Assembly: GCA_963674745.2 (NCBI GenBank)
Contig: CAXXDV010000003.1
Span: forward strand, 1,888,001 to 1,952,000
Reading direction: 5' to 3'
Source of the DNA: Desulfosudaceae bacterium
GTDB lineage: Bacteria > Desulfobacterota > Desulfobacteria > Desulfobacterales > Desulfosudaceae
DNA length: 64,000 nt
The position numbers and the translations under genes are program-made. The stretch's first letter is position 1, and the number at the start of each line of letters is the position of its first letter. Under the pieces are notes generated by a model, which was not told the origin of the DNA, made no database searches, and saw only the letters and a program-made list of their open reading frames with translations. Shown here piece by piece: positions 124-45,992 of this stretch.

Positions 124-2172
124 TCATTTTTCCATACAAAGGACGATGGCCGTCCGTGTGGGCAGATAAAGGCTCAGCGCGTTTCGGTTACCATCGTTGG
201 AATCGATCGGCAACGTAAAGTACGCCTGGTCCGGTGCCAGGCGATCATGCCCGCCATAACGCCGGCTGTCGCTGTCTAAAACCAGACGGTATTTCCCGGT
301 TGGCGCGGGTACAGGGTAGTCGACATGAGACACGGTGGGATGAAAGTTAAATACAAACAATAAACCATTGCGCATGAATGCGATTATCTTGTCTTCATTA
401 TGCTCGGTCAGAAGATACGGCCAGGGATCGGCAAAGAGAGAGGCTTTCTTCGCCAGGTTGATCATAGCCCGGTCAAACTGTTGTAAAAAACCGTACTTCA
501 GGTCGGGGTTATCCACCAGTGACCATTGCCGCCGGGCATGATGATAGGACCAGCCGTTTCCAGCCCGGGGGAAATCGATCCATTCCGGGTGCCCGAACTC
601 ATTGCCGATGAAATTCAGGTAGCCGTGACCGGCAGTCGCCAGTGTTATCAGGCGTATCATTTTATGCAGGGCCATGGCCCGATCAATGACAAGGCTGGTA
701 TCGTTAACGTGCATCTGATCATACATGGCCGCGTCCGCCAGCCTGAACATCAGCGTTTTATCCCCGACCAGTGCCTGATCATGGGATTCGGCATAATTGA
801 TCGATCCTTCACCGGCGCGGCGATTATTTAGCTCATGCCACAGTGTTCCCATGGGCCAGTCTTCATCGCGGTACTCCTTGGTCAGTTTTATCCAGAAGTC
901 CGGAACCCCCATGGCCAGCCGAAAATCAAAACCGCAGCCGCCTCCTGACAACGGCACAGCCAGGCCGGGCATACCGCTGATATCTTCGGCAATGGTGACG
1001 GCATCCGGGCGCACTTCATGAATAACGGTATTGGCCAGTGCCAGGTAAGTCAGGGCATCTTCATCCACATTGGAATTAAAATAATCATCATACGAGGTAA
1101 ATGCTTTTTCCAGACCATGATCCAGATAAAGCATGCTGGTGATACCGTCAAAACGAAATCCGTCAAACCCGTATTCCTCCAGCCAGAAGCGACAATTGGA
1201 CAACAGAAACCGCAACACCGGCAGCTTGCCGTAATCAAAACAGCGGGAATCCCAGGCATGATGCATGCCCCGGGGATCGTCATGAAAGTACTGATAGCGG
1301 GTGCCGTCAAACCGGCTAAGCCCCTCTACTTCATTGTTGACGGCATGAGAATGGACAAGGTCCATGATAACCGACAATCCGGCGCCGTGAGCGGTGTCGA
1401 TCAGATGTTTCAATTCTTCCGGGGTCCCGAAACGGGAGGATACGGCAAAAAAACTGGAAACATGATAACCGAAGGAGCCATAGTATGGATGTTCCTGTAC
1501 GGCCATCAGTTGCATGACGTTGTATCCGGAGGCGGCAATACGGGGAATCACTTTTTCGGTAAACTCAGAAAAGGAACCCACCCGCCCCTCTTCCTGGGCC
1601 ATGCCCACATGGGCCTCATAAATTAAAGTCTGCCCCCCCTGCTTGTCCGGACGATCATACTGCCATTGATAATCCGGCCGGTGCCACACCTGGGCGTTAA
1701 AAATCAAGGTCTCCGGGTCCTGAACAACGCGTCTGGCATAAACGGGAATCCGGTCGCCACCACCGCCGGGCCAGGCCATATAAAGCCGGTAATAATCACC
1801 ATGGGCAAGCGCATCGGCCGGCAGATGAAGCTCCCAGAGACCTTCATTGCCTCTTTTTTGCAGCTCGAAGTTCTTTTTCCGCTGCCAGGCGGTCATGTTC
1901 CCGATCAGCCATATGGATTCGGCATTGGGCGCCCATTCCCTGAATACCCATTCATTGTTTTTAAAATGCAGGCCGAAATAATTATGACTGTCGGCAATAT
2001 CGGATAATCGCGATCCGCTTTGCCCGATAAGACGACCGGCCACTTCATCAAGGTTCGACAGGCGATTTTCCAGGGCCCGGGCATAAGGGGCCAGGTAAGC
2101 GTCACCATCAACCAGCGACTTCACCATGGCTTGGACAGACCGTCTGTGATTACCGTCAGGTGTATTTGACAT
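124..2172 (-). CDS. glgB: 1,4-alpha-glucan branching enzyme (GH13)
   Basis: 682 aa; FREWAPNA, IYEAHVG, YYGSFGYHV, GFRFDG, AED and YAESHDQ motifs. Confidence 0.95.
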   Translation of the reverse strand: MSNTPDGNHRRSVQAMVKSLVDGDAYLAPYARALENRLSNLDEVAGRLIGQSGSRLSDIADSHNYFGLHFKNNEWVFREWAPNAESIWLIGNMTAWQRKKNFELQKRGNEGLWELHLPADALAHGDYYRLYMAWPGGGGDRIPVYARRVVQDPETLIFNAQVWHRPDYQWQYDRPDKQGGQTLIYEAHVGMAQEEGRVGSFSEFTEKVIPRIAASGYNVMQLMAVQEHPYYGSFGYHVSSFFAVSSRFGTPEELKHLIDTAHGAGLSVIMDLVHSHAVNNEVEGLSRFDGTRYQYFHDDPRGMHHAWDSRCFDYGKLPVLRFLLSNCRFWLEEYGFDGFRFDGITSMLYLDHGLEKAFTSYDDYFNSNVDEDALTYLALANTVIHEVRPDAVTIAEDISGMPGLAVPLSGGGCGFDFRLAMGVPDFWIKLTKEYRDEDWPMGTLWHELNNRRAGEGSINYAESHDQALVGDKTLMFRLADAAMYDQMHVNDTSLVIDRAMALHKMIRLITLATAGHGYLNFIGNEFGHPEWIDFPRAGNGWSYHHARRQWSLVDNPDLKYGFLQQFDRAMINLAKKASLFADPWPYLLTEHNEDKIIAFMRNGLLFVFNFHPTVSHVDYPVPAPTGKYRLVLDSDSRRYGGHDRLAPDQAYFTLPIDSNDGNRNALSLYLPTRTAIVLCMEK

Positions 2173-7179: not shown

Positions 7180-10100
7180 TCATGTTTTTTTTAACTGTTC
7201 CCAGACCCGGCACCACTCACTCAAACCCCAGGCCTGGGCGTCACATCCCCTTGGTGTATGCGGAAAATCACCGTCGAGGATTTCAGGCAAATGACCGGTA
7301 CAGCCGTGAGCCATCAGGTCCACACTGGCGGCCAGCATAGAACGGGCGGTCTGTTTTCCCCGGGTACCATAGATCATGGCCCAGGCTTCACAGTAGAGCG
7401 GATACATCCAGGTCCAGGCCGTGCCGTTATGATAAGCGGGTTTCCGGCTGGTGTCCTCGTCTCCAAGGTATTTTCCCTGATAGGGCTGGTGAGGATTGTT
7501 GAGCACGCGCCCATTATGCATAATGGTTAACGGATATTTGACCGGTCTGTTCGCCAGGCTCCGAATAGCCCCGGGAACCAGAAGCATATTGCAGGCGTCC
7601 AGGACGGCCCTGCCGATTGTCTTATCGGACACGGCACCCAGCGTGACGGCCAGCAGCTGATTAGGCCGAAGGGCGTCGTCCGTCGTGGCCTGCAGAGCGG
7701 ATTGTCCCGGTTCGGCATGAAGACAATCCGCCAGATATCCATTTTCCAGTATAAACAAAGATGCGATAGACGCCCGGACCCGTTCCGCCATTTCGCGCCA
7801 CTGCCCCCCCTCGCCGCGTTCCATCCCGGACAGCAGGTTCAGGGCCGCATACCACAGGGCCTGAATCTCGATGCAATAGCCCTGGCGGGGCGTACAGGCC
7901 GGATGGTCAGTATCCATCCAGGTAAAATGTCCGGGGCTGAAAACCAGCCCGGAGGCCTTGTCCACGCGAATATGATTGTAGGTTCCCTGAATGTATGAGG
8001 CCGCAATGGATATCAGAATTTCCCTGATCGTTCTATCACCGCATTTTTCATGAAGAAAGGCGGCTGACTGCTCTAACCGGATCATGTCCGCGCAGGCCGT
8101 AAAAAACCATAACGGGGCGTCGGACGTATCCCGGTTCCGGGCATCGTCACCCACGATCATGTTCGGCAGGGTACCGTCCTTTTCAAAACGGCCGAACTGC
8201 TTTATCACCTTTCGCGCTTCGGTGGTCAATCCTGCCGCGATTAACCCCCTTACGGCGATCAGCGAATCCCGGCCCCAGTCCAGAAACCAGGGGTATCCGG
8301 CAATGACGGATTTAAGGTCACCGCGGTCGACGACATACTTCAACAGGTTGGCATGCAGGACGGCGGTCAACCCCGCCTCTTCGGCCGGTTCCTGAACAGC
8401 GGATGCCGATTCGAAAAACCGCTCTTTTATGTAAACCGGCGCTTCTGTTTCGTTGACAACGGCATCCAGATGAATCGTCTGCCCGCCTTTTAAAAATATG
8501 GAAAAATATCCGGGGCTGAAAAGATCAGAAGCGGCCTCCATGCCGCGTTCGGCTTCAAGCGGACGATGCACCATATACAACCATTCCGGCTCCCGGACAA
8601 ATCTGCCGGAACTCACGGCCAGTCGAAGCCGTCGGGAGGGGTCGGGTGAAAAAACAAAAGCGGCCGGTTCCTGCACAACGGCCTGGGGCCAGGCATATTC
8701 AGGGCCGGTATAGGCCTTGGTTAAAAAATGAAAATTCCTGTCTTCGATGTCCGGCCTGAGAATCAGCTGGACATCAAGATCGTCGTCCAGCCCCCGGGTG
8801 GTTCCATCCATGGGTTTTCTAAAAAAACTGATCCGGACGGCATTTTGATTCTGCGCCATGCAAATGCCGGCCATCAGATCGATCCACTCCCCCTGCCCGG
8901 TCGGTATCTGATAATGCCAGACGCCGTATCCATCTTCGACCCGGAACGCATCCAGACAATCAAAACAGATTTCCTGGGAAAACCCCTGGTATACCGTCCA
9001 GGCCCGGCACCTGGTAAACATAATCCAGCGATCTTCGGGAAATAGGGGATTCAGGTTCGCCGCCAGCAAGGCGTCATATTTGCTGTCAAGTTCGCCCCAC
9101 AGGACGTTGGCCCGCAGCATTCCGCCCACATGATTGGTGTCCAGCAGCAGCGGGGAAAACCGACTCACATCATTGCGGCTATATTCAGACTTGAGATTGA
9201 TATGATCCGGATCAGGCAAAAAGTATAGCGGCGCCCGGTGATGGCCTGACGCGCCATCATTGTAAGAAACCAGTTCCAGCGTCAGATGGCAGCCGGCAGC
9301 AGGCATGTCGGGGGGTAAAAATAAAATAAAAGAGCCGCCGTCGGCAGCCGGCAGGCTTTCCTCGCTGATGATCACCCGGTCATTGCCATCGGAAATATCA
9401 ACAATCAAAGCACGAAAAAACATGGGCGTGCGCACCATCAGAAAATGCCCGCGCGGAATCATGACTTCACGTTTTAAATCATGGGGCCAATGCCAGGTAA
9501 TGACACGACTTTCTTCATCGGCAGAGGCAAAAGAGCGGCAGAAGTCGACGGGATCGTCCCGGAACCGGCCGGCCGCGCCCTCAACATCAAAACCATCAAC
9601 GTCAACCGTTCCATGGTAATGGCAGAAAACCGCCATGGCCTTGGCCCGCAGGCGCTGCCGCAACAGTCGATCGGGCAGCATCAGGCGATCTTCGGAAACG
9701 TTAAACAGATCAAGGTCTGCCCTGTCTGTTGACAGGCAGTAAACCTGGCCTGGCGCCAGATCGCAGCCGGCGGTATTATCAACCGGGCTGGCCGTCATTT
9801 CGCGGCCGGTTAACAGATCAATATAATCAAACCGGTTTATATCGGGAGGCACGATCCAGGATGCGCGACCCGGCTGTTCATCATCGAGGTTAATCACAAT
9901 GATAAGTTTTTTCCCGGTCGGCTGATGATGTCTGAGCAGAACAAGATGATTTCCCTCACCGGTTTGAATCATCCGCAATAAGACGGCATCAAAGAAACAG
10001 GGATGGTTTTTAAGCAGGACCGTCAACCGGCGGATGAAATCCACCTGGTTTTCCGGCGCACCCCAATTTAACGAGGGTGATTCATGAACATCAATTTTTT

Positions 10101-37542: not shown

Positions 37543-39120
37543 GTGCCTGTAATATACCCTGTCGCAGGCGGCAAGGGCGGTATTGGAAAAAGCTTTATTA
37601 CCGCTAACCTCGGATACCTGCTGGCAAAAGAGGGGAAAAAGGTGCTTTTAAGCGATTTCGACCTTGGCAGTGCCAACCTTCATTCTATGCTTGGGATGAA
37701 AAACCCGGATACAGGTCTGAGCCATTTTCTGGACAAAACGTCGCCGGATCTGATGGATACGATTGTATCCTGCCAGAACCCCGGGCTTTTTCTGTTGAAC
37801 GCTCAAAAATGCGGTCTGGAAGCCGCCAACCTGCCTTACGCCCAGGTTCAGAAAATTATCAATGCCATTTCCCGATTGTCGTATGACCTTATTCTGCTGG
37901 ACCTGGGTGCCGGCACCCATTTCAATACCCTGGATTTCTTACTGACATCAACAAATGTGATTATGGTCTTTACCCCGGAACCGACCTCAATTGAAAGCGG
38001 TGTCAGATTTATCGAAACGGTTTACTTCAGGGCTTTAAAAAAACTTTTAAAACAACAGCGAATGAATGCGATCCTGAAAAGCACGGGCACACCATTTGCC
38101 CTATCCCTCTCGGAAATTGTGAACACGCTTGTCCGCGAAACGGACGATGACGGTCCGAACCTGCTTCAATGCCTGGGTAATTTTTCTTTCAAACTCATCA
38201 TCAATCAGGCCAGAAGTCAGGACAGCCTGAGTTTTGGCACGGCTTTATTGAAAATGTTTCGGCGTCACTTTTATTCCAGCTTTGAACTGATCGGCATCCT
38301 CGATTATGACGAAAAAATCCTTGATGCCATATCCTCAAAACAACTTTATGCCAAGAAATTCCCTCGTTCCAGAACCACTCATGATCTGACAAAAATCGCA
38401 AAACGTATTGTCTCCGTCAACAATGCGCCTGCACATGCCCCCGTCAGAATTTTTTCCACCCGTAACTATTACGAACTTTTAGACATCCAGCCTGATGCCA
38501 CGTTGAGTGAGGTGCAAAAGGCGCACCAGACCACCCTCGACCTTTACCGGAACAACCCGAAAATTACAGATGCGTTATTCAGCATAAAAGAAATAAACAA
38601 TATCCTGGAAAAAATTGATTCAGCCGCCCAGGTCTTAATTAATCCCAATAAAAGAAGGGAATATGACGCATCTTTATTCATTAACAAACCAGAAAATGAA
38701 AAGAATTACGCTAAATCGGCCGGCAGCAGAGAAACAACTATTGGCAATAATGACGATTTCGACAGAAAGGAGGGTCGTATCCCGTCATTGCAGACAAAAG
38801 CAAAGAAAAATCCTGAAACGCAAAATTTGATAGAAAAGCTCAACAAGCAGCCGGTTATTTCCGGCTGGGATTTAAAAGCACTCCGGACTGCTTCAGGTTT
38901 TACCATTGAAACCATTTTTGAAAAAACCCGGGTCGGCATCTCCATTTTGAAAGACATCGAAGAAGACCGGTTTGACGCTTTACCGCCGATGATCTATCTA
39001 AAAGGTTTCCTGAAAGCATATGCCCGGGAACTCCAACTGCCACCCGGCGCTGTTGTTGATGGATATCTGAAAAATATCGAAAAAAAAGATCGTTACCGGC
39101 CGGAAAGGCCGAACGGTTAA
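37543..39120 (+). CDS. MinD/FlhG-like ATPase fused to J-like and XRE/HTH_25 domains
   Basis: GGKGGIGKS, DLGAG, TPEPTS; NYYELLDI...KRREYD; LKDIEEDRFDALP..YLKGFLKAYA. Confidence 0.85.
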   Translation: MPVIYPVAGGKGGIGKSFITANLGYLLAKEGKKVLLSDFDLGSANLHSMLGMKNPDTGLSHFLDKTSPDLMDTIVSCQNPGLFLLNAQKCGLEAANLPYAQVQKIINAISRLSYDLILLDLGAGTHFNTLDFLLTSTNVIMVFTPEPTSIESGVRFIETVYFRALKKLLKQQRMNAILKSTGTPFALSLSEIVNTLVRETDDDGPNLLQCLGNFSFKLIINQARSQDSLSFGTALLKMFRRHFYSSFELIGILDYDEKILDAISSKQLYAKKFPRSRTTHDLTKIAKRIVSVNNAPAHAPVRIFSTRNYYELLDIQPDATLSEVQKAHQTTLDLYRNNPKITDALFSIKEINNILEKIDSAAQVLINPNKRREYDASLFINKPENEKNYAKSAGSRETTIGNNDDFDRKEGRIPSLQTKAKKNPETQNLIEKLNKQPVISGWDLKALRTASGFTIETIFEKTRVGISILKDIEEDRFDALPPMIYLKGFLKAYARELQLPPGAVVDGYLKNIEKKDRYRPERPNG

Positions 39121-41832: not shown

Positions 41833-42954
41833 TCAGCCTGCCTGCCGTTCAGCGACCGCTTTTACGATCACACCAAGGTTCACCCCTGACCGCTGTATAA
41901 CCCGGCGGCATCGGGCAAACAACAACCCTGAAGCATTGGCGTTTCTCCCGGCCGATTCCCGCCCCAGCACGATCATTGCCGGGAGCAAGGTTTCCTTTAA
42001 CAACATCAGCTTGTCATGTCGTGACGCAAGGCAATTCATCCACAATATATTGCCCCAGTCTCCGATCGAACGGCCCCGTGATCTGAAGCCCAGCAAAGCC
42101 TGTTCAATACCGGAAATACTCATCTCGGAATGACAAAGCCGTGAACCTCCCGGAGGCTGAAAACAGAACATCCTGCCGAGCAGAAAAAAAGCATAGGACA
42201 ATGGTTTCTCCTGTTGAAACAAAAGAGCCCTGTCGTCCAGGCTTTTCCAGAATCCCGCGTCCCTGCCCCTGACAATCAAAAAAAAATCGACCAGCCAGAC
42301 CAGTTTTGAAAATGAATGCTTGATCATATGATGGGCCATATAGATTAAATGGGTAAATTCGTCGGGCACCCGCACAAGAGAAAACTCTTCACCCCAGGGG
42401 AGGGATTGGTTAAATATCTGTCGCTGATGCACAGGAAACAAGGCCTGCCTGCTTTTAATGCGCGATGTATGCATCAAACTGGTGTGCACATCGATCCGGA
42501 CATCATCTTTGTGAAACATCTGGGGGAACCGATGATCTGTTTTATAGCCGTTTTGTTTTAAAACTTCTTTCAGGCCCGACAAATCTTCTTTGCGGACCAG
42601 GAGATCAATGTCCTCCATGGGTCGTAGACCCGGGTCTGCATAAACGGTATCAAGTAAAGCCGCGCCTTTGAGCAGCACCACAGATATGTTTTCTGAGGCA
42701 AGAAGAGACTCAAGGATTTTAAGGTGCTCCCTTCTGAGGGTGTTCATCGCAAGCGTGGAATAATAGGCCTGTTCCAGAAAATGAAAGACGTCAGCAGGAA
42801 TGCCGTCCTGATTCGCCATCAAGCGATAGGCCAACCCCTGGAGCTGTTGTTGCGATAAAAACCGGGTAAACCCGTCCCAGGACTCGGGTGGCCTTGCGGG
42901 TTGATGCAGTAAAAGAGACAGGAGATAGTTCTGAAAACGTAAATCAGACATCAT
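41833..42954 (-). CDS. nucleotidyltransferase family protein (NTP_transf_5-like)
   Basis: LKGAAL and RPMEDIDLLV (DxD) motifs. Confidence 0.88.
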   Translation of the reverse strand: MMSDLRFQNYLLSLLLHQPARPPESWDGFTRFLSQQQLQGLAYRLMANQDGIPADVFHFLEQAYYSTLAMNTLRREHLKILESLLASENISVVLLKGAALLDTVYADPGLRPMEDIDLLVRKEDLSGLKEVLKQNGYKTDHRFPQMFHKDDVRIDVHTSLMHTSRIKSRQALFPVHQRQIFNQSLPWGEEFSLVRVPDEFTHLIYMAHHMIKHSFSKLVWLVDFFLIVRGRDAGFWKSLDDRALLFQQEKPLSYAFFLLGRMFCFQPPGGSRLCHSEMSISGIEQALLGFRSRGRSIGDWGNILWMNCLASRHDKLMLLKETLLPAMIVLGRESAGRNANASGLLFARCRRVIQRSGVNLGVIVKAVAERQAG

Positions 42955-43475
42955 CTTACCCGTAATCTTTTCAAGACAGCCAGATATTTGACGATCAACG
43001 ATTTGAAGCGATAGTATTGTGCCCGGAAACGGTTCAAGATAATCGACCTGAGGCTAAGCATGTCGATCGAAATTAACCCTTTATGTCCCGGGCGTTCGAC
43101 AGAAACAACTCTGCCAAGACATTGTGCGGCGTCCAGGGGTAAATCCATCATATCCAGGGCATCACCTTTTGTATGCAGGATATTGTTATCACCGCCGGTG
43201 CCGTTGTTTTGAATTCTCAAAAGCCGGTGCAGCGCCATGGTTCCATTATCACGTGTACAAAGAACAACGTCCCCGGTTTTAAGCATTGCCGGGGGCACTT
43301 TCCGGATGGTGGCGATATCCCCGTCTTTAAGAGCGGGTGTCATACTGTCTCCGGTAACACGGACACGCAGATCTTTTCCGCTGGCCAGCAACGCTGATGC
43401 GAGTTCGCTCGACAGCGGATGGGTCTCGCGCGGATTGCCGGTTTCACAGGCATGATATTCATGTATTGAATTCAT
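42951..43475 (-). CDS. S24/S26-family peptidase (Ser-His type)
   Basis: GDSMTP (Ser), GDVV, HRL (His) and KGD; no TM segment. Confidence 0.85.
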   Translation of the reverse strand: MNSIHEYHACETGNPRETHPLSSELASALLASGKDLRVRVTGDSMTPALKDGDIATIRKVPPAMLKTGDVVLCTRDNGTMALHRLLRIQNNGTGGDNNILHTKGDALDMMDLPLDAAQCLGRVVSVERPGHKGLISIDMLSLRSIILNRFRAQYYRFKSLIVKYLAVLKRLRVR

Positions 43476-44370
43476 TGGCGTTCTCTTGAAAAAAATCCGA
43501 GATCGAAGCATCGGCTCGAAACGTCAACTCATAAGCGGGAATCCGGCTTATCAAGTGGTCACAAAAGGCCATCATGGCGGCTGTTTTTTCTTTATCATAC
43601 CAGGGGATGGATAATACCGGCAACAATCTGCCAATCGTGTCCGAAGCGGAAAGTTCGGCCATCCTGTTCTCCGAGCCCTTGGACAAAAAAGCCATTTGCT
43701 TGAGTTCAACGCCCAGATTGACCGCGTGCCCCCCTTCCCCGGGCCACGGCGTCCCGTGCATTTGAAAGGTATGACCGGTTCTGCGGATGACGATGCGGTC
43801 ATCGCTTAACACCGCTCCAGAATTCAGGCCTGACAGATATCCGGCCAGGGTTGTCTTGCCGGCACCTGATTTTCCCGGGAAAACCCATCCCGAATTGTTT
43901 TGCGCCCATCCTGCCGCATGAACGATGACACCTTCATGATGGGCCAGAAAGTTCATCAGCATGATCTGATCCAGCGGATAGGTGACAGGATTAAGCGCCA
44001 GTGACCGCGTCTGTGTATTAATAATGTCACTGCTGCAGAACACAATGACCCGTCCGGCCTTTAAACAAAGCTGCGCCGTCCAGACCGGTTTTGCGAAAGG
44101 CGGGTATTGATCCGTAACATATAATTCGTCTTGACGAGCATAAACAGACCACGAATCCTGGCTGTCAAAAATTCGCTTGCAGCCCGTTAATTCCGGAGCA
44201 GGGTCTGCGGTCAAAATCACTTCGAGGTGTTCCTGATGGGAGCAGACGCGGTCATTATCGTCTAAGACGAACTGCCGGGAAATGTTTTGCGCCCATGCTT
44301 CTGCCGGCAACTTTAAATGACCGGTATCAACCTTCAGGGCCAGGCCTGCTATTGAAAGGATAAGTTTCAA
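43459..44370 (-). CDS. HPr-kinase-related P-loop kinase
   Basis: VHAAG, GKSGAGKTT, LSDD and GTPW motifs. Confidence 0.8.
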   Translation of the reverse strand: MKLILSIAGLALKVDTGHLKLPAEAWAQNISRQFVLDDNDRVCSHQEHLEVILTADPAPELTGCKRIFDSQDSWSVYARQDELYVTDQYPPFAKPVWTAQLCLKAGRVIVFCSSDIINTQTRSLALNPVTYPLDQIMLMNFLAHHEGVIVHAAGWAQNNSGWVFPGKSGAGKTTLAGYLSGLNSGAVLSDDRIVIRRTGHTFQMHGTPWPGEGGHAVNLGVELKQMAFLSKGSENRMAELSASDTIGRLLPVLSIPWYDKEKTAAMMAFCDHLISRIPAYELTFRADASISDFFQENANEFNT

Positions 44371-44384
44371 AGGTTTACTGGCAC

Positions 44385-44576
44385 TTATGATCCGAGGCTG
44401 AAGCAGGCGGAAGGCGCCACGCAGCTGAAGGGCGGTATGGCTGGCTGGCCTTTGCCCCCGGAGCTACTGACGTTTGTTTTGCACCCCACGGCCAGCACCT
44501 CATCGGCGACCAGCTCTATTATCTTGACGTCCGGTTTCTCATAGGGGCGCTTTTTCGGTTCGCTCTTTTCGGACAT
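44385..44576 (-). CDS. putative RiPP precursor peptide (63 aa)
   Basis: leader with YEKP motif; Cys/Ser/Gly-rich core; lies between the rSAM and kinase genes; GAGGGCG RBS. Confidence 0.8.
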   Translation of the reverse strand: MSEKSEPKKRPYEKPDVKIIELVADEVLAVGCKTNVSSSGGKGQPAIPPFSCVAPSACFSLGS

Positions 44577-45678
44577 GTTCGCCCTCGACTGTCATTTGAT
44601 TAACATTTAATTTTTTTCCCATGCAACGGCCGATGCTGCAGAGATATTCTGAAATCTGTGTTTCAACACCCGTGTCCAGCCGGAAAAAAGCGGGACAGTA
44701 ACCGCAATAAGCACGATTTTCACAGGTTTTACATTCAAACTCAAGGGGAATCTTCTTTTTCCTGATGGCCGGAATCCGGTTTTGCCAACCGTCCATAAAA
44801 GATCCCTTCAAAAGATCATACCAGATATCGCTGACCATCAGGCAGGGTTTCAACCGCCCACCCGGGTCTATATGAAAATTAGTAGTGCCCGCACCGCAGT
44901 CATACAGCACATCGGAAAACGGCACCTGCGCCATCCGTTCCGCAAGCGCCCTCCATTCACCTACCATTCTTGAATCAGTCAGATTTTTTTCCGCCACCTC
45001 ATCCGGCGAAACCCGGTATGCAGCTGGAACGCGACTGCCGTCCAGGCAGGGAAATATCATACCGTCAAAACGGAACTTGATGCTGAAATTTTCAGCTACC
45101 TCTCGGATCCCATCAAATTCATGCCGGTTGATTGACATTAAAACAGTCTTCATCCGTGTCTGGACACCGGCATCAACCAATAATCGAATGCCATTCAGCG
45201 CTTTTTCCATCATGCCTGAACGGCGGGTTATCGCTTCATAGGTCGCTTCCGTTGACCCGTAGAAGGAGACCTCCACACAATTGGGCGGATATTCTTGAAA
45301 CAGCTCAATGATACGTTCGTTTATCAGGGAACCGTTGGTAAAAACGGTTACCACCAGTCCTTTTTTTTTCGCGTGGGCATAAAGGTCCGGGAAGTCTTTT
45401 CGCAGCAGGGGTTCCCCGCCGGTAAACAAAAGATATAAACAACCGGCTTCAGTAATTTCATCAATAATCGTAATCCATTGTTCCGTAGTCAGCTCTTGGG
45501 AAGTCTTATCAGGATTGTTTTTATCCGAACCCAGATAGCAATGAACGCAATCAAAGTTACATCGCCGGGTGATTTCAATATCGCCGCTGATCGGGACTCT
45601 GGCCCTCATGACCCGGCGCGCAAAAGCCATAAATGCGGATTCCGCTTCTATGTTCAATCGTTTCGGACAATCCATCAC
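44539..45678 (-). CDS. radical SAM/SPASM-domain peptide maturase
   Basis: CNFDCVHC, TGGEPL; SPASM cysteines CGAG..PC..CKTC..CGYC..C. Confidence 0.92.
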   Translation of the reverse strand: MMDCPKRLNIEAESAFMAFARRVMRARVPISGDIEITRRCNFDCVHCYLGSDKNNPDKTSQELTTEQWITIIDEITEAGCLYLLFTGGEPLLRKDFPDLYAHAKKKGLVVTVFTNGSLINERIIELFQEYPPNCVEVSFYGSTEATYEAITRRSGMMEKALNGIRLLVDAGVQTRMKTVLMSINRHEFDGIREVAENFSIKFRFDGMIFPCLDGSRVPAAYRVSPDEVAEKNLTDSRMVGEWRALAERMAQVPFSDVLYDCGAGTTNFHIDPGGRLKPCLMVSDIWYDLLKGSFMDGWQNRIPAIRKKKIPLEFECKTCENRAYCGYCPAFFRLDTGVETQISEYLCSIGRCMGKKLNVNQMTVEGEHVRKERTEKAPL

Positions 45679-45992
45679 CGCACTTCACATATTAAATCCA
45701 GGTCAATCAACCGGTCGATGAGCTCACAGACATCGTTTCTGGCTACGGACCCGTTAACGGTAAAATTCTCTTCGACCCCATGACAGATTTGGTTTACCCG
45801 GTTTTCCCCGGATAATTGCTCCCACACAAATTCGGCAACCGGATTAAGCATGAATATCCGCTGCATATCAGCCACTTTTCCCCTGATGGGCACCAGGATT
45901 GCCTGACCGGCAATATTGCGGGAAACGATATCGGACTTTTTCTGATAAACACGATCCAGGATTGTTTCCGGGGCAGAACTGTTCATGGGCAT
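45675..45992 (-). CDS. PqqD-family RiPP recognition element
   Basis: SRNIAG.AILVP...LNPVAEFVWE...DVCELIDRL; start at the ATG after AAGGA. Confidence 0.88.
   Translation of the reverse strand: MPMNSSAPETILDRVYQKKSDIVSRNIAGQAILVPIRGKVADMQRIFMLNPVAEFVWEQLSGENRVNQICHGVEENFTVNGSVARNDVCELIDRLIDLDLICEVR

Follow-up and report, generated by a model that had tools for sequence, protein, structure and literature searches.

Does a row of six genes in the genome of a Desulfosudaceae bacterium encode a peptide-modifying pathway, and has such a pathway been described before? The row occupies positions 41833-45992, on the minus strand, of a 64,000-nucleotide stretch (GenBank assembly GCA_963674745.2, contig CAXXDV010000003.1, positions 1,888,001 to 1,952,000), hereafter the window. 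A preliminary description had proposed an uncharacterized cassette for a peptide that is made on the ribosome and then modified post-translationally (RiPP), and its six co-oriented, overlapping or abutting open reading frames (ORFs) were all found in the ORF list at the coordinates given. The data support an operon dependent on a RiPP recognition element (RRE), in which a 63-residue precursor would be modified by a radical S-adenosylmethionine (rSAM) enzyme, phosphorylated on Ser, and freed of its leader by a signal-peptidase-like enzyme. This reading is assigned a probability of about 0.8, a figure that covers the RiPP operon in general and not each chemical detail. The operon is a one-rSAM member of a large family that joins an rSAM/SPASM maturase to a tailoring module of the type found in lasso peptide and linear polyphosphorylated peptide (LPP) clusters.

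Gene order and conservation of the cassette

Read along the minus strand, the genes (Table 1) encode a PqqD-family RRE, an rSAM/SPASM maturase, the precursor, an HprK-like kinase, a signal-peptidase-I-like peptidase, and an NTP_transf_5 protein. The PqqD and rSAM genes overlap by 4 nt, as do the last two genes of the row; the rSAM gene overlaps the precursor by 38 nt, 14 nt separate the precursor from the kinase, and kinase and peptidase overlap by 53 nt, or by 17 nt if the peptidase starts at 43475. The PqqD frame is open to 46094, and its ATG at 45992 lies 10 nt past the stop codon of a giant upstream gene. Promoter and terminator scans of the stretch gave numbers similar to those from shuffled sequences (20 found versus 15.1 expected and 23 versus 19.0, respectively).

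Near-full-length homologues of the rSAM enzyme were patchily distributed, occurring in 9 of 40 related genomes, with all other matches restricted to the rSAM core. When 10 loci of those genomes were searched with the window proteins by tblastn, PqqD and the kinase were each found in 8, the peptidase in 6, and NTP_transf_5 and the small ORF in 3 each. A scan of one genome per species yielded at least 595 confirmed rSAM relatives, of which the loci of the best 76, from many bacterial phyla and one archaeon, were analyzed. The window and loci L014-L099 together made up 87 sources, and our own hidden Markov models (HMMs), iterated over all their ORFs, detected PqqD in 70, the HprK-like kinase in 74, the peptidase in 57, NTP_transf_5 in 24, the precursor, in syntenic position, in 51, and a C25 protein in 16. 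The rSAM HMM also labeled kinase ORFs, by way of rSAM-HprK fusion proteins, and such labels were disregarded. The order PqqD-rSAM-precursor-kinase, with or without the peptidase next, was common to about 30 loci from many phyla, and the six-gene arrangement is therefore not a chance one. Related loci also contained fused ORFs, 12 joining rSAM to HprK-like sequence and 4 joining peptidase to NTP_transf_5, the latter in both orders; these fusions lend support to one pathway for the enzymes. A defense-system reading was also considered and rejected: PADLOC returned a generic rSAM-core match to pVip only, and nothing for the other five proteins.

A conserved precursor peptide

The 63-residue ORF, which the preliminary description had taken for the precursor, is preceded by a GAGGG Shine-Dalgarno sequence at 44586-44582, 5 nt before its ATG, and is present in the genome as a single copy. 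Its product would have a basic N-terminus, a leader motif (Y12-x-K14-P15-x-V17 ... L22), a box (D25-E26-V-L-A-V-G-C32-K33), and a variable, Gly/Pro/Ser-rich core with C52 and C58, ending in G62-S63. Among 55 precursor ORFs extracted from the loci, the last residue is Ser in 48 and Thr in 4, a C-K pair is present in 48, and exactly three Cys residues occur in 38. Leaders of the Y-x-x-P type were paired with one rSAM gene in 31/34 loci, and those of the W-x-x-P type with two or more rSAM-type ORFs in 18/20, a split that matches the Tyr versus Trp distinction that Popov et al. (PMC13381572) describe for the RREs of LPP and paeninodin.

Searched against 1.84 billion proteins, a family profile built from 33 Y-type precursors retrieved 2,359 cluster representatives with E ≤ 1e-3; with E ≤ 1e-10, the number was 215. 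The best 150 matches were 51 to 90 residues long; Y-x-x-P and C-K were present in 150/150 and three Cys residues in 144/150, while 140 ended in Ser (110 of all in Gly-Ser) and 9 in Thr, counts that are partly circular, the profile having been built from such peptides, and to that extent lend the operon reading less weight. A stop codon directly after Ser was not enforced by the profile. In the 144 three-Cys matches, the spacing was 10 to 17 residues from the first to the second Cys, 2 to 8 from the second to the third, and 5 to 9 from the third to the end. The conserved columns were K9 R10 P11 Y12 x K14 P15 x [LVI]17 x x [VI]20 x L22 in the leader and E25 E26 [AV] [VL] [LA] x x C32 K33 in the box, which is written below as E-E-A-V-L-x-G-C-K. 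Core columns were variable and Gly/Pro/Ser-rich (G39-P40), with C52, C58, and G62-S63 retained. In relatives at 89, 84, and 71% identity, the N-terminus and mid-core vary, and the box, the Cys positions, and a C-[FY]-x-x-G-S ending are kept.

With its conserved leader, variable core, and position beside modifying enzymes, the ORF is, as judged from sequence, a real conserved RiPP precursor. The family signature can now be made explicit as a Y-x-K-P leader, a C-K box, three Cys residues at set spacings, and a terminal Gly-Ser. The family occurs in Thermodesulfobacteriota, Nitrospirota, Chloroflexota, Acidobacteriota, Actinomycetota, Omnitrophota, and Verrucomicrobiota, among others. It is very large, and a product is known for no member; every one of 17 database relatives is named "hypothetical protein."

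The RRE and the rSAM maturase

When a PqqD profile of 21 homologues was compared with the PDB, the best match was the lasso RRE TbiB1 (5v1u, E 4.7e-12), followed by 9x90_B and 9x8z_B (2026 entries named lasso/PqqD-family chaperones) and then by PqqD; the window PqqD sequence alone gave a best E of 0.22. Residues R25, W57, and D87 of the RRE were invariant. In the rSAM enzyme, the CX3CX2C motif (C40, C44, and C47) and seven C-terminal Cys residues (C261, C279, C316, C319, C325, C328, and C347) were invariant in 26/26 homologues from same-type loci. Judged by these residues, the enzyme carries a full 7-Cys SPASM domain, despite giving no match to the Pfam SPASM model. Together with the PF05402 and PF04055 matches, the 3 + 7 invariant Cys residues bear out the earlier assignment of an RRE-dependent cassette with an rSAM/SPASM enzyme. 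An AlphaFold2 model of the enzyme (mean predicted local distance difference test score, pLDDT, 90.2) had as Foldseek neighbors PqqE, SkfB, BlsE, SuiB, 5why ("thioether bond formation in sactipeptides"), EpeE, and anSMEcpe, the last with the highest template modeling score, 0.68-0.70.

With sactipeptide and ranthipeptide systems, the cassette shares a 7-Cys SPASM rSAM enzyme, a Cys-bearing core, and an RRE, and SkfB and a sactipeptide enzyme are among the structural neighbors. Unlike in those systems, the RRE is discrete, the rSAM enzyme having no fused RRE domain, and the cassette also includes a signal-peptidase-like protease next to its kinase and nucleotidyltransferase genes. The combination of SPASM rSAM enzyme and Cys-containing core makes thioether formation a prediction, and cross-links from C32, C52, and C58 are rated slightly better than even among the rSAM chemistries. 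Besides the terminal Ser, the three invariant, spacing-constrained Cys residues are the sole obvious conserved modification sites, and no aromatic or Lys partner is conserved in the precursors beyond K33. These features argue against a non-thioether chemistry (epimerization, C-C or C-O cross-linking, or Cys oxidation), in which the Cys residues would form disulfides or bind metal. Such a variant, which would be compatible with the operon as read here, is nevertheless a real possibility of the second rank, given that the neighbors include PqqE (C-C), SuiB (Lys-Trp), the top-scoring anSME (Cys oxidation), and the epimerase EpeE, and that no sactipeptide or ranthipeptide model reaches its cut-off for the window enzyme.

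Kinase, peptidase, and nucleotidyltransferase

The kinase scored below the NCBIfam cut-offs (HprK_rel_B, 31 bits versus 200; HprK_rel_A, 23 bits, also below). Its Walker A motif, G166-x-S168-x-x-G171-K172-x-T174, was conserved among 76 homologues, together with H151 and D190/D191-R192; G206-T-P-W209 was conserved as well. The top Foldseek matches of its model (pLDDT 90.4) were phosphoenolpyruvate carboxykinases and HPr kinase/phosphorylases, at E about 1e-5. In the NTP_transf_5 protein, G97 and D115-x-D117 were conserved. The HprK-like fold and motifs, together with PF14907, agree with the kinase and nucleotidyltransferase pair of paeninodin type that had been recognized at the outset. Two more kinase-profile matches were present in the genome, at G000:C1:284392-284763 and C1:1866164-1866364 (E 2e-13 and 5e-13, in frames of 555 and 363 aa).

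The peptidase came close to the NCBIfam model for archaeal-type signal peptidase I (sigpep_I_arch, 47.4 bits versus a cut-off of 51.85), with SipW at 29 bits. A profile of 16 homologues matched SEC11C/SEC11A best in the PDB (E 2.7e-13), with bacterial signal peptidase I and LexA well behind. The motifs G-x-S56-M-x-P, H95-R, and G-D117 were conserved in 58 sequences, and the Ser-to-His spacing of 39 equals that of S29-H68 in LppS of the LPP clusters (PMC13381572). The gene has an alternative start at 43475, and no long hydrophobic segment was seen on reading the sequence. By these features, the enzyme is of the archaeal/endoplasmic reticulum (ER) Ser/His/Asp type and is likely the leader peptidase. 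The earlier label of an S26 peptidase was right in substance, archaeal signal peptidase I and SEC11A/C being its nearest relatives.

Relation to described systems

The closest characterized counterpart of the tailoring genes was found in the LPP clusters, LppA/K/B/S/D/N (Popov et al., Nat Commun 2026, PMC13381572). Their core set comprises a discrete RRE, the HprK-like LppK, the signal-peptidase-I-like LppS, LppN, and a pump. Polyphosphorylation by LppK falls on Ser3 of the core, and LppS, which has an S29/H68/D93 triad, cuts the leader only with the RRE. The clusters are located in capsule loci, and the family is called restricted to Bacillota by its authors. The window cassette shares with them a discrete lasso-type RRE, a Y-x-x-P-x-[VLI] leader, an HprK-like peptide kinase, a soluble archaeal-type signal-peptidase-I-like Ser/His/Asp leader peptidase, an NTP_transf_5 gene, and the absence of a lasso cyclase, and cassettes of its type are likewise frequently placed in capsule or exopolysaccharide loci.

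Beyond this common set of RRE, kinase, peptidase, and NTP transferase, the two systems diverge. The window cassette has an rSAM/SPASM enzyme and a three-Cys core, neither of which is found in LPP clusters, which have no other core-modifying enzyme, and it has no MsbA-like pump. Of the LPP signature YxxPxVLxHQxIxFETxxS, only Y-x-x-P-x-[LVI] is shared, the box being E-E-A-V-L-x-G-C-K here and VLxHQxIxFET there. The conserved Ser stands at the very end of the peptide and not at position 3 of the core, the host lies outside the Bacillota, and window-type cassettes are often linked to a giant C25 protease. PMC13381572 contains none of the words "radical," "rSAM," or "SPASM."

A second point of comparison is provided by paeninodin and pseudomycoidin, for which PMC6993621 reports that the C-terminal Ser receives between one and three phosphorylations from PsmK/PadeK and that the attachment of one or two hexoses to the phosphate depends on PsmN. 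The window cassette has in common with them the kinase and nucleotidyltransferase pair, a Ser-terminated precursor, a B1-type RRE, and a Y/W-x-x-P leader, and Ser63, as the last residue of the window precursor, is the predicted phosphosite. Unlike in those clusters, a signal-peptidase-like peptidase and an rSAM enzyme take the place of the macrolactam synthetase and the B2 protease. As had been noted before, none of the genes Pfam-scanned at 30.5-64 kb of the window was found to encode a lasso cyclase, a B2 protease, or an ABC exporter, the first 30 kb being unscanned and the macrolactam synthetase (C) not having been searched genome-wide. The single B2-like match in the genome (PF13471, 31 bits) is weak and lies on another contig.

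Of the related families, SynChlorMet (SCM; TIGR04248-TIGR04251) comes nearest in its NCBIfam names and combines, like the window cassette, PqqD with rSAM/SPASM and an HprK-like protein of ScmC type; both are bioinformatically defined and uncharacterized. SCM cassettes have two rSAM enzymes (ScmE and ScmF), whereas the window cassette has one, and related two-rSAM loci use W-x-x-P leaders, whereas the window type uses Y-x-x-P. The window proteins scored 29.9 versus a cut-off of 100 for ScmD, 108.1 versus 400 for ScmE, and 76.3 versus 400 for ScmF, and the kinase gave no match to ScmC at E ≤ 0.01. A second cassette of near-SCM type was observed on a separate contig of the same genome (G000:C1, about 164.6-172.8 kb; L100: 2662-10812, minus strand). 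It contains an S24 peptidase, a short HprK-like ORF, an rSAM enzyme (ScmF, 367 versus 400), PqqD (ScmD, 71 versus 100), and an rSAM enzyme with an N-terminal extension (ScmE, 387 versus 400), with NTP_transf_5 2 kb on; no precursor was found beside it by the precursor profile or by motif search.

That the window cassette is simply a member of SCM or LPP, and so already described, is suggested by the presence of ScmD and ScmE among its best NCBIfam matches and by the LPP core set. The scores far below the cut-offs and the single rSAM gene speak against SCM membership, as does the separate cassette with scores of 387 and 367; LPP clusters have no rSAM enzyme, carry a pump, differ in the leader box, and are described as restricted to Bacillota. 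Such membership is accordingly rated very improbable, and the distinction from SCM and lasso clusters drawn in the preliminary description, which was largely right, stands on the low scores, the single rSAM gene, and the absence of a B2-like gene near the window. No description of a cassette combining rSAM, HprK-like, and signal-peptidase-like proteins was found in the open literature, subscription journals and the PMC13381572 supplements (including sequence similarity network clusters 2-11) lying outside the search. Word look-ups in PMC4289311, PMC13692751, PMC12710340, and PMC7470986 gave no description of an rSAM-bearing cassette, and "SynChlorMet" did not occur in the open literature searched.

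The module of RRE, kinase, leader peptidase, and NTP_transf_5 protein is therefore already characterized, as LPP, and its rSAM-bearing form is uncharacterized. The earlier statement that no product of this type was characterized thus holds for the rSAM-bearing form, whereas the tailoring module had been characterized in 2026 (PMC13381572). Novelty had to that extent been overstated, and the terminal Ser, the Y-x-x-P motif, the C25 gene, and the exopolysaccharide row had been missed. What the family brings together are two chemistries so far studied apart, rSAM cross-linking and the Ser-phosphate tailoring of paeninodin, pseudomycoidin, and LPP.

A proposed pathway

On the basis of homology and conservation, the following pathway is proposed. 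The discrete PqqD RRE would bind the leader through Y12-x-x-P15-x-V17, as suggested by the motif and by its likeness to the lasso B1 protein, and the rSAM/SPASM enzyme would modify the core. The HprK-like kinase would phosphorylate the Ser63 side chain, possibly several times, the near-invariant terminal Ser fitting a kinase of the PsmK/PadeK type. In the next and weakest step, the NTP_transf_5 protein might add or enable a further group on the phosphate, a hexose in the case of pseudomycoidin. The RRE would then present the leader to the soluble Ser/His/Asp peptidase, which, by analogy with LppS, would remove it within or just after E-E-A-V-L-x-G-C-K. Nucleotidylation, raised as a possibility in the preliminary description, is not what the studied homologue suggests, PsmN being needed for hexose addition (PMC6993621); LppN showed no activity (PMC13381572).

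Several points weigh against this pathway. The NCBIfam matches of the rSAM enzyme (AhbD, NirJ2, ScmE, StsB, and MftC) are all far below their cut-offs, and its chemistry is not readable from sequence, the structural neighbors covering several chemistries. The phosphosite is not fixed by homology, since LppK targets Ser3 of the core and not a C-terminal Ser, and LppN had no detectable activity. The cleavage site is ambiguous, as cuts at L-x-G/C and G-x-C/K (the slash marking the bond) would both fit the rule of small residues at -1 and -3, and the 16- to 17-residue spacing from Tyr to the cut in LPP and lasso leaders would by analogy put it near E-V-L/A. NTP_transf_5 lies within the available flanks of only 9/34 Y-type loci and is for that reason not regarded as a core part. 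Finally, no transporter was found in or beside the cassette, which has the giant C25 gene on one side and a convergent gene of 105 aa on the other, and no exporter recurred in the flanks of 18 well-flanked Y-type loci.

The biosynthesis of pyrroloquinoline quinone (PQQ) and of mycofactocin follows the logic of PqqD, an rSAM/SPASM enzyme, and a peptidase. The cassette shares this logic, and a cofactor-type pathway, in which the peptide would serve as a scaffold and a small molecule excised from its conserved C-terminal residues would be used inside the cell, would account for the missing exporter. The conserved C-x-x-x-G-S terminus behind a variable middle could be read in the same way, and MftC is among the few NCBIfam models that span nearly the whole rSAM enzyme (28-325, 95.5 bits), although its cut-off of 265 is far from reached. 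Three Cys residues conserved over about 27 residues, together with the C-K box, are a better fit to a cross-linked peptide than to a dipeptide-derived cofactor; every product so far known for the kinase and NTP_transf_5 module is a peptide, and the link with a secreted protease and with exopolysaccharide export genes suggests the outside of the cell. A cofactor is on balance unlikely, and a modified, phosphorylated peptide is retained as the probable product.

A giant C25 protein beside the cassette

The gene upstream of PqqD encodes a protein of 2,969 residues with a signal-peptide-like N-terminus (by eye), SdrD_B, DUF11, and dockerin-type repeats, and a PorU-like C25 module of about 540 residues at its C-terminus. 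These last residues align with positions 174-732 of the model for PorU, the sortase of the type IX secretion system (T9SS; NF033707), at 191 bits versus a cut-off of 420, and a catalytic dyad of His (GHG) and Cys aligns with that of gingipain R (1cvr). Alignment and dyad make up the likeness to PorU. Unlike PorU, the protein is below the cut-off, its host is not a member of the Bacteroidota, and the module ends an adhesin-like protein of 2,969 residues; within the window, no T9SS context was observed. By the NF033707 cut-off, the protein is not a member of the PorU sortase family. Residues about 930-1130 and 1260-1460 form two long near-repeats, each starting "...RDEFSSAAYDNDDGTANW...GDW.ETD...", which match no Pfam family and are located between adhesin-type repeats.

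A homologous C25 module adjoins the cassette in 14/35 Y-type loci, a count made up of 13/34 by regular-expression classes plus L054, which was read as Y-type from its sequence after a chance match had classed it as W-type. The module was found in 0/15 W-type and 2/37 unclassified loci, and many of the loci counted as unlinked stop at contig edges. It lies immediately upstream of PqqD or immediately downstream of the kinase, except in L048, where it stands between kinase and peptidase. Two C25 genes are present in the window genome, and five relatives have between 0 and 3 that exceed the Pfam cut-off; because genomes hold so few, chance adjacency to the cassette is very unlikely. This recurrent adjacency to a giant PorU-like protease is new here. 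On a tree of 26 rSAM enzymes, C25 linkage was scattered, requiring 8 changes (216 of 500 shuffles do as well), and phyla were mixed. A single origin of the linkage was not supported, the C25-linked cassettes forming no single clade, and the scatter and the mixing of phyla suggest repeated gain or loss and horizontal transfer. In one relative (G003), the cassette contig C104 (L015) breaks right upstream of PqqD (8430-8786 of 8807), and the 3' end of the only C25 gene of that genome (2,848-aa frame) lies in fitting orientation at the start of contig C141 (C25 domain 573-1598, minus strand); the two may be neighbors separated by the assembly.

With the giant gene 10 nt from PqqD and linked in 14/35 loci, the enzymes might be thought to tailor the giant protein, or another surface protein, with the small ORF not being a substrate at all. 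Yet 21/35 Y-type loci have no C25 gene in the available flanks, and the small ORF is positionally conserved, carries the Y-x-x-P-x-[LVI] motif bound by lasso-type RREs, and belongs to a 2,359-member family of 50- to 90-aa proteins. On a reading of the sequences, moreover, the giant protein has a signal peptide and the enzymes have none. Tailoring of the giant protein is rated extremely improbable, and the small ORF is kept as the predicted substrate.

Gene linkage, to the C25 protease in about 40% of loci and to exopolysaccharide export in some, points to a place for the peptide at the cell surface. A surface or matrix role is suggested by it, rather than the usual antibiotic role, in an echo of the capsule-locus placement of LPP clusters. 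As one speculative and doubtful possibility, the peptide could be a surface building block instead of a free antibiotic: once it is cross-linked, its C-terminal phosphoserine would be extended with sugar through the NTP_transf_5 protein, and the C25 protein would act on it extracellularly, either to process it as a protease or in the manner of a sortase-like transpeptidase, giving a peptide-phosphoglycan adaptor that ties surface proteins or the protease to exopolysaccharide. If true, this would give RiPPs a function of a new kind and would place a PorU-like sortase system beyond the Bacteroidota. A role as dedicated inhibitor or chaperone of the giant protease is considered just as conceivable.

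Exopolysaccharide genes and other surroundings

Beyond the giant gene and a choice-of-anchor U protein, a homologue of which stands beside the cassette in L014, lies a row of exopolysaccharide genes (57342-63989; Table 1), co-oriented with the cassette, which forms the end of the row. Their best NCBIfam matches were the XrtA/PEP-CTERM-associated ATPase, exporter, tyrosine kinase, and chain-length determinant, all below cut-off. Homologues of exopolysaccharide export genes were found by phmmer beside cassettes in 9/86 other loci, with L020 and L033 among those bearing the trio, and by Pfam in 3 to 4 of 18 well-flanked Y-type loci. The link between cassette and exopolysaccharide genes is recurrent, not general. 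In L020 (G037:C3, 34-11644), close homologues of the Poly_export, GNVR kinase, and Wzy_C trio (E down to 1e-208) directly adjoin a two-rSAM, W-leader cassette without a C25 gene, so that the same row accompanies the other cassette type.

Table 1. Features of the cassette and its surroundings (window positions) and fused ORFs of related loci (locus positions)
Feature	Position	Strand	Basis or remark
NTP_transf_5 nucleotidyltransferase-fold protein, 373 aa, PsmN/LppN type	41833-42954	-	PF14907, E 2.4e-40
Archaeal/ER-type signal-peptidase-I-like Ser/His/Asp peptidase, 186 aa, S26B	42951-43511	-	PF00717 (Peptidase_S24), E 5.6e-8
HprK-like P-loop peptide kinase, 303 aa, TTG start as listed	43459-44370	-	Motifs, fold; no Pfam match
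Precursor peptide, 63 aa	44385-44576	-	Shine-Dalgarno, syntenic homologues, own profile; no Pfam match
Radical SAM/SPASM peptide maturase, 379 aa	44539-45678	-	PF04055, E 2.5e-26
PqqD-family RRE, 105 aa	45675-45992	-	PF05402, E 6e-13
Giant secreted protein, 2,969 aa	46003-54912	-	Peptidase_C25, E 1.8e-70; stop 10 nt before PqqD ATG
Choice-of-anchor U domain protein, 597 aa, probable surface protein	55080-56873	-	NF041766, 86.9 bits versus cut-off 32
Wzy_C-type ligase/polymerase	57342-58700	-	Pfam
Wzz/GNVR tyrosine autokinase	58697-60973	-	Pfam
Poly_export/SLBB protein with FG-GAP repeats	61027-63177	-	Pfam
AAA_22 ATPase	63192-63989	-	Pfam
Convergent ORF, 105 aa	41465-41782	+	Signal-peptide- or lipoprotein-like N-terminus, second hydrophobic segment
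Peptidase-NTP_transf_5 fusions	L027:3892-5973, L033:12174-13784, L037:3845-6070, L052:12146-13765		
rSAM-HprK-like fusions, 12 ORFs, 650-739 aa	e.g., L062:4127-6208		In two-rSAM, W-leader loci

The convergent 105-aa ORF on the other side of the cassette matched no Pfam or NCBIfam family and had no homologue in the 86 loci. Further out, at 37543-39120 on the plus strand, a 525-aa ORF shows an unusual architecture, in which a MinD/ParA-type P-loop ATPase is joined with a DnaJ domain and, at the C-terminus, a RodZ-like HTH_25 domain.

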